The notes beneath the pieces are model-generated. The model was not told where the DNA came from, did not search any database, and was given only the letters and a program-made list of their open reading frames with translations. Below, one piece after another: positions 1 through 27,364 of a stretch of 27,364 bases of DNA. A program made the translations under genes and the position numbers. Origin of the DNA: a virus (Duplodnaviria; Heunggongvirae; Uroviricota; Caudoviricetes); IMG/VR virus record IMGVR_UViG_2541047426_000009, positions 1 through 27,364 of that record. One strand, 5' to 3'. Position 1 is the first letter of the stretch; the number at the start of each line of letters is the position of its first letter.

Positions 1-8
1 GTTTCCAT
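1..8 (-). CDS. dicB: 5' end only (ATG GAA AC) of a dicB-like cell-division inhibitor gene that runs off the left edge
   Basis: Reverse complement of 1-8 is ATGGAAAC (Met-Glu-Thr...), immediately downstream on the minus strand of the DicF-like sRNA; matches the known dicF-dicB arrangement. Only 8 nt present. Confidence 0.3.
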
Positions 9-177
9 TATCGCGTCCTCAACAATGAATTTTGTGATGCGGTGCCTGGTGCCTCCAGGTGACGTTAACCAGTTAACAATTAACGCCGGATACAGAGAAT
101 CCACCCATAACACTGTTTTTAGCTTTAACTGTTCCGCGTGCGCTTAGCCGCATTCACTGCATCACAAAATTCACTTT

Positions 178-233
178 AAAAAGGGCGGACATCAGTTCAT
201 GGGCAAACAGATGCCGCCAAACGTCACCAGAAA
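178..233 (-). ncRNA. dicF: DicF-like antisense sRNA
   Basis: Minus-strand sequence UUUCUGGUGACGUUUGGCGG...GUCCGCCCUUUUU: 5' portion matches recalled E. coli DicF, ends in a GC stem plus U-run; lies downstream of dicA on the same strand as in Qin. Ends approximate. Confidence 0.6.
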
Positions 234-566
234 ATTGATAACAGAGGGCGTTGCAGCGGGGTTGTCACTTAAGCGTATGGTCAACCTGACAACCCGGTGT
301 CCTCAACGGGGAAGGAATAACCCCGCCATACTTACCGCTGCGCCATTTCGCGGAGTGCCACAACCGGAAGCGCACGGTCGACGAAAATTTAACGACAGGC
401 TATCTATGAACCAGCAACCTCGCCGTGCGCTTTCGCGTTATGCTCTGACTTTTCAGAGAAATATCCTTTCAGTAAACTGTCAGTGCCGGATGTTCACCCG
501 TGTCCGGCGCACGCACTCCACTTCACCCGTGGAGAACTCCTTAATTACCAACCCTCAGGAGGGTGA

Positions 567-800
567 ATGTTAAAATCAACTCTTATTGCTAAATGCCTTT
601 ATCAAAATCGCATGGTAAGCAGCATTTCAATAGGCGAGTCTGCAGTTAAAAGTATTTTCGAAGAGTACTTTCCCGGGCATGATTTTAATAAATGGAATAC
701 CAAATTACCGCCAGCAGTTTCAACGCGTATTCTGAAAGCAACCGAAAGAGCAAGTACAATTCGCGTTAACTATTTCATTAAAGATTTGTGGGATCTTTGA
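567..800 (+). CDS. hypothetical 77-aa protein, convergent with and overlapping the 3' end of the 778-1185 minus-strand gene
   Basis: ATG preceded by AGGAGG 4 nt upstream; AT-rich; no recognisable homology. Could be spurious. Confidence 0.3.
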   Translation: MLKSTLIAKCLYQNRMVSSISIGESAVKSIFEEYFPGHDFNKWNTKLPPAVSTRILKATERASTIRVNYFIKDLWDL

Positions 801-1185
801 TATCCACAGAGCCTAAAGTATGTGCATATGGATGTGCTATTATGCGCCCTCGCAGATTTGCATCATTTTCTAAATTCACTGAACGAAACAGGGCATCAAC
901 AAGGCTCTGTACAATGCAAAGGCAATCGAAGACTGTCGCCGTTTCTGTTTTGATTGATGAAAGAACATGGCCATTCACGCAAACAGAAATTACCCGTTTA
1001 TTAACATCGCTTTCCTGCTTTTGATTATCAGAACCATATAGCCCAGAAAAAGCATTGCGCACATTACGAACCATATTATCGATGGTTTCTTTTTCTGCGG
1101 TACTAAGGTCAAGAGTAGCCAGTTGTGAACGAACTATATTCGATGCCATTTCCTGTAATGGCGTTGGTAAATCTTTAAATTCCAT
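778..1185 (-). CDS. hypothetical 135-aa protein in an AT-rich islet of the early-left operon
   Basis: ORF with GAGG Shine-Dalgarno 6 nt upstream of ATG; no motif recognised. Confidence 0.5.
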   Translation of the reverse strand: MEFKDLPTPLQEMASNIVRSQLATLDLSTAEKETIDNMVRNVRNAFSGLYGSDNQKQESDVNKRVISVCVNGHVLSSIKTETATVFDCLCIVQSLVDALFRSVNLENDANLRGRIIAHPYAHTLGSVDIKDPTNL

Positions 1186-1207
1186 TATTAGCCTCGTTGG
1201 TTAGCTA

Positions 1208-1426
1208 TTAACGTGGGTATGTAATCATTCTGGCAATGCTTAATGCCGCTGCTTTTTCCAGATTGGTGATATCCTGCTCCAGAGCGGACAGATTTTCAGC
1301 CTGCTTAGCCCTGGCTTCATTGGCCCATTTCAGGTCCTGCACCGCCTTAATTTTCTGGTGCATCCACTCATAAAGTTCATCATCGGTATAGTCTGGCGCG
1401 ATGATGACGGGGTCTCGTTTCTGCAT
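1208..1426 (-). CDS. small 72-aa early-left operon protein (YdfC-like by size and position)
   Basis: ORF with AGGAG RBS 6 nt upstream; 72 aa; sits between dicA and dicF on the same strand as ydfC does in Qin. Sequence identity to YdfC not verified. Confidence 0.55.
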   Translation of the reverse strand: MQKRDPVIIAPDYTDDELYEWMHQKIKAVQDLKWANEARAKQAENLSALEQDITNLEKAAALSIARMITYPR

Positions 1427-1498
1427 GTCGGCTCCTTGTGGTTAGCGTTGCCTGCTTTTTAACCACGTCAGGCGAGGTGGTATCCTCTGAGGGGTCTG

Positions 1499-1798
1499 TT
1501 ACTCGAGAGGAAATTGGTTATGAATACAATCAAGTTTTCTTGCCCAGAATGTGGTGGCTAAGTCTTTGACACATCCTTTAAGCCGCAGGGCTCTGACAGT
1601 TTCGCGGGAGCCATCTGCAAAAATTGTGGTCACCTTGTAACTGAAGATGAGTCCTCGCAGTTCGATGACGAAATCGTTGACAATATCTTCGGTGCACTCA
1701 CCAGAGACTTTCTGAAGTAAAGGCGCATACCGCTTAGTTACCGCTCTGATAACTCTTACCTGTCCGGCAATGGCGCTGATATCAATATAAAGCGCCAT
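1499..1798 (-). CDS. hypothetical 99-aa protein, first gene downstream of dicA
   Basis: ORF on dicA strand; weak RBS; no recognisable motif. Confidence 0.45.
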   Translation of the reverse strand: MALYIDISAIAGQVRVIRAVTKRYAPLLQKVSGECTEDIVNDFVIELRGLIFSYKVTTIFADGSRETVRALRLKGCVKDLATTFWARKLDCIHNQFPLE

Positions 1799-25318: not shown

Positions 25319-25327
25319 GGGATGTTT

Positions 25328-25660
25328 ATGACGAGCAAAGAAACCTTTACCCATTACCAGCCGCTGGGCAACAGTGACCCGGCTCATACCGCAACCGCGC
25401 CCGGCGGATTGAGTGCGAAAGCGCCTGCAATGACCCCGCTGATGCTGGACACCTCCAGCCGTAAGCTGGTTGCGTGGGATGGCACCACCGACGGTGCTGC
25501 CGTTGGCATTCTTGCGGTTGCTGCTGACCAGACCAGCACCACGCTGACGTTCTACAAGTCCGGCACGTTCCGTTATGAGGATGTGCTCTGGCCGGAGGCT
25601 GCCAGCGACGAGACGAAAAAACGGACCGCGTTTGCCGGAACGGCAATCAGCATCGTTTAA
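25328..25660 (+). CDS. D: head decoration protein gpD
   Basis: 110 aa [27 protein letters not shown]... near-identical to recalled lambda gpD. Confidence 0.9.
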
Positions 25661-25678
25661 CCTGACCCTTCATCACTA

Positions 25679-25702
25679 AAGGCCGCCTGTGCGGCTTTTT
25701 TT
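25679..25702 (+). terminator. intrinsic terminator-like hairpin between D and E
   Basis: GCCGC-ctgt-GCGGC followed by TTTTTTT. Confidence 0.45.
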
Positions 25703-25715
25703 ACGGGATTTTTTT

Positions 25716-26741
25716 ATGTCGATGTACACAACCGCCCAACTGCTGGCGGCAAATGAGCAGAAATTTAAGTTTGATCCGCTGTTTCTGCGTCTCTTTTTCC
25801 GTGAGAGCTATCCCTTCACCACGGAGAAAGTCTATCTCTCACAAATTCCGGGACTGGTAAACATGGCGCTGTACGTTTCGCCGATTGTTTCTGGTGAGGT
25901 TATCCGTTCCCGTGGCGGCTCCACCTCTGAATTTACGCCGGGATATGTCAAGCCGAAGCATGAAGTGAATCCGCAGATGACCCTGCGTCGCCTGCCGGAT
26001 GAAGATCCGCAGAATCTGGCGGACCCGGCTTACCGCCGCCGTCGCATCATCATGCAGAACATGCGTGACGAAGAGCTGGCCATTGCTCAGGTCGAAGAGA
26101 TGCAGGCAGTTTCTGCCGTGCTCAAGGGCAAATACACCATGACCGGTGAAGCCTTCGATCCGGTTGAGGTGGATATGGGCCGCAGTGCGGCGAACAACAT
26201 CACGCAGTCCGGCGGCACGGAGTGGAGCAAGCGTGACAAGTCCACGTATGACCCGACCGACGATATCGAAGCCTACGCGCTGAACGCCAGCGGCGTGGTG
26301 AATATCATCGTGTTTGACCCGAAAGGCTGGGCGCTGTTCCGTTCCTTCAAAGCCGTCAGGGAGAAGCTGGATACCCGTCGCGGCTCTCATTCCGAACTGG
26401 AGACAGCGGTAAAAGACCTGGGCAAAGCGGTGTCTTATAAGGGAATGTATGGCGATGTGGCCATCGTCGTGTATTCCGGACAGTACGTGGAAAACGGCGT
26501 CAAAAAGAACTTCCTGCCGGACAACACGATGGTGCTGGGGAACACTCAGGCACGCGGTCTGCGCACCTATGGCTGCATTCAGGATGCGGACGCACAGCGC
26601 GAAGGCATTAACGCCTCTGCCCGTTACCCGAAAAACTGGGTGACCACCGGCGATCCGGCGCGTGAGTTCACCATGATTCAGTCAGCACCGCTGATGCTGC
26701 TGGCTGACCCTGATGAGTTCGTGTCCGTACAACTGGCGTAA
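25716..26741 (+). CDS. E: major capsid protein gpE
   Basis: 341 aa MSMYTTAQLLAANEQKFKFDPLFLRLFF... near-identical to recalled lambda gpE. Confidence 0.9.
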   Translation: MSMYTTAQLLAANEQKFKFDPLFLRLFFRESYPFTTEKVYLSQIPGLVNMALYVSPIVSGEVIRSRGGSTSEFTPGYVKPKHEVNPQMTLRRLPDEDPQNLADPAYRRRRIIMQNMRDEELAIAQVEEMQAVSAVLKGKYTMTGEAFDPVEVDMGRSAANNITQSGGTEWSKRDKSTYDPTDDIEAYALNASGVVNIIVFDPKGWALFRSFKAVREKLDTRRGSHSELETAVKDLGKAVSYKGMYGDVAIVVYSGQYVENGVKKNFLPDNTMVLGNTQARGLRTYGCIQDADAQREGINASARYPKNWVTTGDPAREFTMIQSAPLMLLADPDEFVSVQLA

Positions 26742-26782
26742 TCATGGCCCTTCGGGGCCATTGTTTTTCTGTGGAGGAGTCC

Positions 26783-27181
26783 ATGACGAAAGATGAACTG
26801 ATTGCCCGTCTCCGCTCGCTGGGTGAACAACTGAACCGTGATGTCAGCCTGACGGGGACGAAAGAAGAACTGGCGCTCCGTGTGGCAGAGCTGGAAGAGG
26901 AGCTTGATGACACGGATGAAACTGCCGGTCAGGACACCCCTCTCAGCCGGGAAAATGTGCTGACCGGACATGAAAATGAGGTGGGATCAGCGCAGCCGGA
27001 TACCGTGATTCTGGATACGTCTGAACTGGTCACGGTCGTGGCACTGGTGAAGCTGCATACTGATGCACTTCACGTCACGCGGGATGAACCTGTGGCATTT
27101 GTGCTGCCGGGAACGGCGTTTCGTGTCTCTGCCGGTGTGGCAGCCGAAATGACAGAGCGCGGCCTGGCCAGAATGCAATAA
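26783..27181 (+). CDS. FI: DNA packaging protein gpFI
   Basis: 132 aa MTKDELIARLRSLGEQLNRDVSLTG...; GGAGG RBS. Confidence 0.85.
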   Translation: MTKDELIARLRSLGEQLNRDVSLTGTKEELALRVAELEEELDDTDETAGQDTPLSRENVLTGHENEVGSAQPDTVILDTSELVTVVALVKLHTDALHVTRDEPVAFVLPGTAFRVSAGVAAEMTERGLARMQ

Positions 27182-27192
27182 CGGGAGGCGCT

Positions 27193-27364
27193 GTGGCTGA
27201 TTTCGATAACCTGTTCGATGCTGCCATTGCCCGCGCCGATGAAACGATACGCGGGTACATGGGAACGTCAGCCACCATGACATCCGGTGAGCAGTCCGGC
27301 GCAGTAATACGTGGTGTTTTTGATGACCCTGAAAATATCAGCTATGCCGGACAGGGCGTGCGTG
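27193..27364 (+). CDS. FII: head-tail connector gpFII, 5' portion only (runs off the right edge)
   Basis: GTG start with GGGAGG RBS; MADFDNLFDAAIARADETIRGYMGT... matches recalled lambda gpFII. Confidence 0.8.
   Translation, partial: MADFDNLFDAAIARADETIRGYMGTSATMTSGEQSGAVIRGVFDDPENISYAGQGVR

Follow-up and report, generated by a model that had tools for sequence, protein, structure and literature searches.

Inherited lesions, a private IS629 insertion and two frameshifts of probable assembly origin in a lambdoid prophage contig of Escherichia coli O157:H7

The stretch of DNA analysed here (IMG/VR record IMGVR_UViG_2541047426_000009, 27,364 nucleotides; the whole of it is called the window below) comprises, by its gene content and sequence identity, three regions (early, lysis and head) of the lambdoid prophage that carries paa in Escherichia coli O157:H7. 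An initial annotation of the window had listed three frameshifts (in a methyltransferase, an esterase and a portal gene), one in-frame amber codon and one insertion sequence (IS), and had offered two explanations for the frameshifts, genuine decay or homopolymer base-calling error. All the lesions named there are present, and each was placed exactly. Decay is right for the methyltransferase, but neither explanation covers all three frameshifts. What, then, is the origin of the lesions? They may be sorted into three classes. The first is real decay of cargo genes that was inherited, and includes the amber codon, a fimbrial-protein pseudogene and the -1 frameshift of the methyltransferase gene. 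The second is a real, private transposition of IS629 into the esterase gene. The third, a -1 frameshift in the esterase gene and an additional G in the portal gene, would have come from assembly or consensus calling in collapsed multi-copy prophage DNA. We hold this whole explanation, in which the inherited lesions and the private IS629 are real and the two private frameshifts most likely are not, to be probable. For the two private frameshifts themselves, we infer the assembly or consensus origin from the sequence rather than demonstrate it from reads, and judge it fairly likely.

Exact protein look-ups matched two truncated proteins of the window to ERC42103.1 and ERC42119.1 of E. coli B7-2. 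Since these look-ups place the truncated proteins on AVRD01000014.1, the window is one whole contig of a 2013 draft assembly (GCA_000462405.2). A prophage of 64 complete E. coli genomes matches it with 99.4% identity across 94% of its length, and every listed one of these genomes that has a serotype label is O157:H7; identity to O157 genomes ranges from 99.4 to 100%. Reference prophage loci in related E. coli genomes are labelled L001, L002, L003, L005, L006 and L007 below. Positions 1-14298 are 99.95% identical to L001, and strain 28RC1 (L002) has 100% identity over positions 1-7914. The genes are collinear with those of L001, L002, L005 and L006, as in the paa-carrying lambdoid prophage of enterohaemorrhagic E. 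coli O157:H7.

Private differences in multi-copy prophage sequence

The contig was compared with a composite reference made of L001, an IS copy, L003 for a patch in the lysis cassette, and then L001 again. There are 16 mismatches and 3 indels in 27.4 kb. Four features of the window are private, being absent from the finished O157 genomes: the IS629 site, the patch in the lysis cassette and two frameshifts. None of the private differences falls in the single-copy left 13.4 kb, and both private frameshifts lie in sequence with several near-identical copies per O157 genome.

The esterase gene lies at 12880-16045 (plus strand) and is broken. Its domain architecture by Pfam (DUF1737, SASA and DUF6645, at 3-47, 66-262 and 467-577 of the intact ortholog) predicts a NanS-p-type sialate O-acetylesterase; the same DUF1737/SASA/C-terminal architecture has been described for NanS-p (PMC10462455). 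Genomes carrying the gene have a median of 6 copies. In the window it is disrupted twice, by IS629 and by a private -1 change between 13415 and 13416, where the window reads ATTACCC, the orthologous allele ATTCACCC and a paralog ATTTACCC. The esterase frameshift of the initial annotation thus exists and can be placed exactly, but the site is not a homopolymer: what the window lacks, compared with the orthologous allele, is a single isolated C, so that no run has changed its length. This missing base (13415) belongs to a column where the paralogs differ, C versus T. When complete genomes were compared with 13300-13650, the best identity was 98.6%, and the deletion was present in none of them.

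A mosaic tract follows at 13487-13565 (plus strand), in which allele comparison finds the two commonest esterase haplotypes alternating. With the order a a b b b a b a b b..., the tract has 5 switches within about 50 bp. This haplotype is unique among the 85 alleles compared, of which the others mostly have none or one switch, and the 91-mer at 13465-13555 reaches at most 95.6% identity to any of 3937 copies in 840 genomes. Four single-nucleotide polymorphisms (SNPs) here look private; we rejected the idea that they are sequencing errors, as all four are synonymous third-position states of the other, known allele. A simple model in which the window took the majority of all paralogs is also unsupported, the majority-rule consensus of the 85 alleles being different from the window haplotype. 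In the ten best-matching finished genomes, the corresponding interval (L001 16489-16567) holds a b-type tract inside an a-type esterase gene, so the interval appears to be a natural hot spot of gene conversion among nanS-p paralogs.

The second private frameshift is in the lambda-type portal gene (gpB family) at 22416-24018 (plus strand). Allele comparison finds GGG at 22928-22930 where the other alleles have GG, which gives fragments of 195 and 341 amino acids (aa). The portal frameshift of the initial annotation is therefore present, but the homopolymer run in which it had been placed is only 3 nt long. GG is found in 84 of 84 other portal alleles compared. For 22380-23130, the best of 3229 complete genomes differs from the window by one gap only, the extra G, and the extra G was found in none of the 3229. 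Among about 15 billion proteins, both the 195-aa portal product and the 209-aa N-terminal fragment of the esterase are encoded by this contig only. The 379-aa middle open reading frame (ORF) of the esterase and the 393-aa ORF of the portal have no exact match in the protein collection, the annotators having used other starts or made no call. Exact look-ups of the fragment proteins also revealed no sister assembly (B7-1): the N-terminal fragments are unique, and the C-terminal ones also arise in other strains through unrelated disruptions.

The surroundings of the portal frameshift also mix the states of two copies. In O157 relatives, the head-gene segment at 21952-27364 (plus strand) has near-identical versions in two prophages, and in the TerL 5' region before it (19923-21952) the two copies differ densely. 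L007 and L001 are annotated with shared protein accessions for portal, protease, D, E and FI, and with different ones for the head-tail joining protein. A five-way site table shows that the window has the state of the paa prophage at 22641 and that of a CP-933X-like copy at 23103, 23106, 27293 and 27363. The interval of the switch, 22641-23103, includes the additional G. The contig ends at 27364 inside FII (head-tail joining), which is the first gene whose product differs between the copies.

Between the two frameshifts there is a patch of the lysis cassette at 16651-18300 (plus strand), delimited by a three-way site pattern. It takes in the lysozyme gene, Rz and two small ORFs as well as the 3' end of ydfR. 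In many O157 genomes the L003-type prophage matches positions 16850-18100 with 100% identity, and 16640-18320 differs from L003 by 1 mismatch. The patch is of a different co-resident prophage type and stands in place of the relatives' antirepressor-containing version. No complete genome has the patch in these flanks, the best match being 97.9%. As a minor observation, the ORF that replaces the relatives' antirepressor gene (17499-17681, plus strand) encodes a hypothetical protein of 60 aa with a hydrophobic C-terminal half and no Pfam match on record. Outside the patch, A at 15935 and C at 18718 match no allele compared; in the multi-copy half of the contig, these two bases might likewise be private or stem from the consensus.

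The interleaved esterase haplotype, the lysis patch, the switch between head copies and the position of the contig end are together the marks of a contig extended into collapsed repeats. Multi-copy sequence, mixed copy states and an end at a repeat boundary are all found here, and in these respects the window resembles the collapsed-repeat or paralog-chimeric consensus of short-read drafts, which has the same end at the point where copies diverge and the same switching of copy-specific states. It is also like such a consensus in its 'median' haplotype, absent from real copies, and in private differences that are confined to multi-copy sequence. One difference is that the contig spans an IS of 1.3 kb and about 5 kb of two-copy sequence; therefore the assembler used more than short single reads.

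A private IS629 insertion

The insertion reported by the initial annotation is an IS629/IS1203 element (IS3 family) of 1310 bp at 14296-15605 (minus strand), which aligns without gaps and with 100% identity to the IS copies in L002 and L003. Its ends are TGAACCGCCCCGG... and ...CCGGGGCGGTTCA, and comparison with an uninterrupted reference shows a target duplication, GAC, at 14293-14295 and 15606-15608. OrfA and OrfB (108 and 296 aa) are intact, and at 15154-15270 there is a match of 121.5 bits to the ALIL frameshift pseudoknot. The length, terminal inverted repeats, two ORFs, -1 signal and short duplication are those of IS629/IS1203, for which about 1310 bp and a duplication of 3-4 bp are expected.

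The element sits in the esterase gene, behind about codon 472. We considered and rejected a chimeric join here, because the gene resumes exactly beyond the insertion, with the 3-bp duplication. Since such a target duplication cannot be made by an assembler, the insertion is accepted as a real, strain-private transposition into a NanS-p-type esterase gene; it is less certain which esterase paralog is the host. A 56-bp query over the IS junction gave no junction-spanning match in 5426 complete genomes. IS629/IS1203 insertions are used in strain typing of O157, and the present one has the same size, two ORFs, ALIL, 3-bp duplication and 100% identity, but differs in its esterase site, which is absent from those 5426 genomes. 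The private site is usable as a strain marker.

Inherited decay of cargo genes

The amber codon described in the initial annotation lies in a DUF1627 gene at 4808-5542 (plus strand), located by alignment with an intact paralog in L003. The gene starts at ATG 4808, and the TAG at 4859-4861 is its codon 18, for which the L003 paralog has GAG (Glu). RefSeq relatives have the DUF1627 coding sequence annotated from immediately after the TAG. Another TAG, at 2506-2508 upstream of the repressor gene, was considered as the amber codon meant and rejected, since the 135-aa repressor is full length in all relatives. One additional lesion was missing from the initial list, namely a fimbrial-protein pseudogene upstream of paa at 5708-6241 (plus strand); the annotations of L001, L002, L005 and L006, where the DNA is the same, call it 'frameshifted; internal stop'. 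Because positions 1-7914 are identical to 28RC1, the amber codon and the fimbrial pseudogene are common to finished genomes.

The methyltransferase frameshift gives the clearest answer to the question of decay or error. Alignment with intact relatives shows that the N6/N4 DNA methyltransferase gene at 11026-12083 (plus strand) is a pseudogene with a -1 frameshift: AAA at 11708-11710 replaces AAAA, and the two resulting ORFs (11026-11748 and 11727-12083) part the DPPY half from the S-adenosylmethionine-binding half of a protein whose Pfam N6_N4_Mtase domain spans residues 29-340 in the intact form. The exact 61-mer across the frameshift occurs in 26 of the 1146 complete genomes carrying the gene, which come from many laboratories and years. 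Exact products of 240 aa and 118 aa are found on 98 and 79 contigs, and the intact protein on at least about 1000 contigs. Given these 26 genomes, finished independently of one another, and the 98 contigs with the product, the frameshift is genuine and not an error, and the option of genuine decay holds for it. Independent sequencing, which according to the initial annotation might have removed the frameshifts, does not remove this one. It is certainly a clade-specific mutation within O157:H7 and is usable as a clade marker there. By sequence comparison, then, the amber codon, the fimbrial pseudogene and the methyltransferase frameshift are all inherited, real decay of cargo genes.

Real mutation, sequencing error or assembly?

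Could the three frameshifts be systematic homopolymer base-calling errors of the sequencing platform? Two of the three are run-length changes (AAAA to AAA and GG to GGG), and the esterase change could be read as TTT to TT with a paralog as reference. The assembly dates from 2013, a period when such errors were common. However, for the methyltransferase this explanation is refuted by the 26 finished genomes and the 98 contigs. Furthermore, there is no indel in non-coding sequence: all 3 indels are in coding sequence and in runs of 4 nt or shorter (the affected runs have only 2-4 nt), whereas 0 of the 159 homopolymer runs of 5 nt or longer, including 13 runs of 7-8 nt, differ from the references. 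The force of this argument is only moderate where the two private indels are concerned, since for every long run there are about 30 runs of 2-3 nt. With no long run affected, and with one of the three indels not a run-length change relative to the ortholog, systematic homopolymer error is unsupported and extremely improbable. The suspicion cast on the esterase and portal frameshifts was nevertheless reasonable, as they occur in no other sequence searched; it is the homopolymer cause that fits poorly. Note that absence elsewhere fits either an error or a private mutation. One explanation of the latter kind is that all lesions are genuine and the prophage is decaying, the esterase and portal frameshifts being real private mutations, perhaps alongside inter-prophage recombination. 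Patchy heteroduplex repair may then have shaped the esterase gene, gene conversion the lysis cassette, and conversion the head genes. The IS629 insertion shows that private changes occurred in B7-2 at this locus, and finished O157 genomes often have frameshifts in their prophage genes. Conversion tracts of natural origin are known from this esterase interval, the four mosaic SNPs represent real allelic variation in synonymous third positions, and exchange between O157 prophages has been documented (PMC2669165). On the other hand, two private 1-bp indels in 14 kb of multi-copy sequence stand against zero private changes in 13.4 kb of single-copy sequence, and neither indel is seen in thousands of other copies. 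Nothing like the five esterase switches in about 50 bp is seen in the 85 alleles compared, the contig end coincides with a repeat boundary, and indels are not a normal product of homologous recombination. We therefore regard this explanation as possible but unlikely. A special form of it, that one recent burst of recombination between co-resident B7-2 prophages made all the private features, both frameshifts included, is very unlikely. If it were true, patchy heteroduplex repair with error-prone synthesis would create new pseudogenes, and inter-prophage gene conversion would be a force driving prophage decay.

The two private frameshifts might also be isolated consensus errors, due to low coverage or read ends, whose nearness to the paralog switches is a coincidence. 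The portal site, which has no paralog difference, and the 72 bp of pure a-type sequence between the esterase deletion and the mosaic tract are in favour of this. Yet the remaining contig is essentially error-free, with 16 mismatches to the references that are mostly known allelic states, and both errors would have fallen in the multi-copy half; by a rough post-hoc estimate, only about 6% of the contig lies within or close to a switch interval. Such a coincidence is quite unlikely. Assembly or consensus calling in collapsed prophage copies, a cause that the initial annotation had not considered, is thus preferred for the two frameshifts, though several points weigh against it. Real frameshifts are common in O157 prophages, with relatives having frameshifted terminase, capsid and other genes. 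A real short conversion tract (b-type, 13487-13565) occupies the same esterase interval in finished L001-type genomes, and the mosaic tract of the window could be natural as well. About nine a/b-discordant sites at 13416-13486 are purely a-type, as read off the L003 alignment, and this makes a simple 50:50 mixture of reads a weaker model of the deletion at 13415. At the portal site there is no paralog difference able to yield the additional G by mixing of columns, and portal C-terminal fragments identical to that of the window have been called on 18 other contigs, where they derive from other upstream disruptions. Finally, no paper or accession note naming the sequencing platform of B7-2 / AVRD01 was found. 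The lesson is mainly a practical one: prophage pseudogene calls in short-read drafts of O157 and similar prophage-rich genomes should not be taken as decay unless independent assemblies share them.

In line with the frequent frameshifts of the relatives, annotated lesions in the L003 and L006 prophages include a frameshifted large terminase gene, a truncated major capsid gene and a frameshifted DUF1076 effector-like gene (L003 21412-23341 and 27057-27320; L006 42547-43121). These examples illustrate how common real decay is in the O157 prophage pool.

Is the prophage cryptic?

The initial annotation had considered a cryptic, non-inducible prophage, but this does not follow from the lesions, as it would rest on the doubtful portal frameshift alone. 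Four of the damaged genes (DUF1627, fimbrial, methyltransferase and NanS-p-type esterase) are accessory cargo, and multiple functional nanS-p copies per O157 genome have been reported, according to literature cited in PMC10462455. The portal is the only listed lesioned gene that is needed for virion building. Because its lesion is doubtful, and because clade-mates have an identical portal protein (WP_001301524.1) also in a second prophage, the listed lesions are not enough to call this one dead. In addition, head defects were complemented in trans, with packaging, for some O157 prophages of strain Sakai (PMC2669165).

Induction is a separate matter. The DicA/CI-like repressor of 135 aa, at 2062-2469 (minus strand), was recognized by its matches to Pfam HTH_3 and Phage_CI_repr only. 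It has the helix-turn-helix domain without an S24 peptidase domain, and is annotated as a helix-turn-helix protein in the relatives. A repressor without the autocleavage domain is what is expected of a prophage that is not SOS-inducible. The missing peptidase domain would argue against SOS induction and not against spontaneous excision. Indeed Sp4, Sp6, Sp9 and Sp10 of Sakai are in the same situation regarding the repressor, yet they were spontaneously excised, and some of them were packaged (PMC2669165).

Module organization of the prophage

In the relatives, the gene order begins with the dicB side, the DicA-like repressor, Cro, YdaT, a DnaT-like O protein and a lambda-type P. There follow the DUF1627 gene, the fimbrial pseudogene, paa, hokD, DUF968, rusA and a Q-like gene, and then the DNA methyltransferase, two tRNAs, the DUF6645/SASA esterase, holin, YdfR, lysozyme and Rz. 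PerC, Nu1, A, W, portal, protease, D, E, FI and FII complete the series. The integrase, tail genes and attachment sites are outside the window. The prophage belongs to the well-described pool of defective lambdoid prophages of O157:H7 (the Sp prophages of Sakai and CP-933 prophages of EDL933; Asadulghani et al. 2009, PMC2669165). It shares with them the lambdoid module order, a repressor without a peptidase domain, IS629 insertions, scattered inactivating mutations, and late and head genes that are near-identical between co-resident prophages. It is an ordinary member with nothing new in kind, and the picture of this pool is unchanged by the window.

The mosaic nature of the prophage was correctly recognized in the initial annotation, which had described a Qin/Rac-like immunity region, phage-21-like lysis and packaging functions and near-lambda head genes. 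In the immunity region, the neighbours of the repressor are a P22-Cro-like protein and YdaT, both by Pfam. By Pfam, the holin is a member of the family 'Bacteriophage P21 holin S'; the endolysin is only distantly related to the phage 21 lysozyme (E value 3e-17). The cos region and the 5' half of the small terminase gene, at 19602-20102 (plus strand), have 83% DNA identity to phage 21, a level too low to show identical packaging specificity. Similarity to lambda starts only at 19915, with about 91% DNA identity for the C-terminal part of Nu1 and the A gene. The N-terminal DNA-binding domain of Nu1 diverges from lambda, and residues 69-98 are those of lambda. The best match of the Nu1 N-terminus is PDB 7LWR, and the link to phage 21 rests on DNA similarity. 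The head module is the part nearest to lambda: the gpD homologue is identical to lambda gpD at 109 of 110 positions.

Several small features complete the description. An ATG ORF of 124 aa (199-573, plus strand) lies between dicB and the first annotated gene and is unannotated in every relative; in this region no match to DicF reached the Rfam gathering score. A sok antitoxin RNA (7349-7498, plus strand, 104 bits) is directly 5' of the hokD toxin gene (7496-7651), so that the prophage hok/sok module appears complete. The tRNA at 12124-12199 (plus strand) is called Met (anticodon CAT) by ARAGORN and tRNA-Ile in the RefSeq relatives, which is the usual ambiguity for lysidine-modified Ile tRNAs of lambdoid phages. 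Finally, two small RNA matches adjoin back to back, with the phage tRNAs on one side and the esterase gene on the other: STnc100 at 12466-12674 (plus strand, 175 bits), above the Rfam gathering score, and the anti-GcvB RNA AgvB at 12676-12735 (minus strand, 56.6 bits), barely above the threshold.

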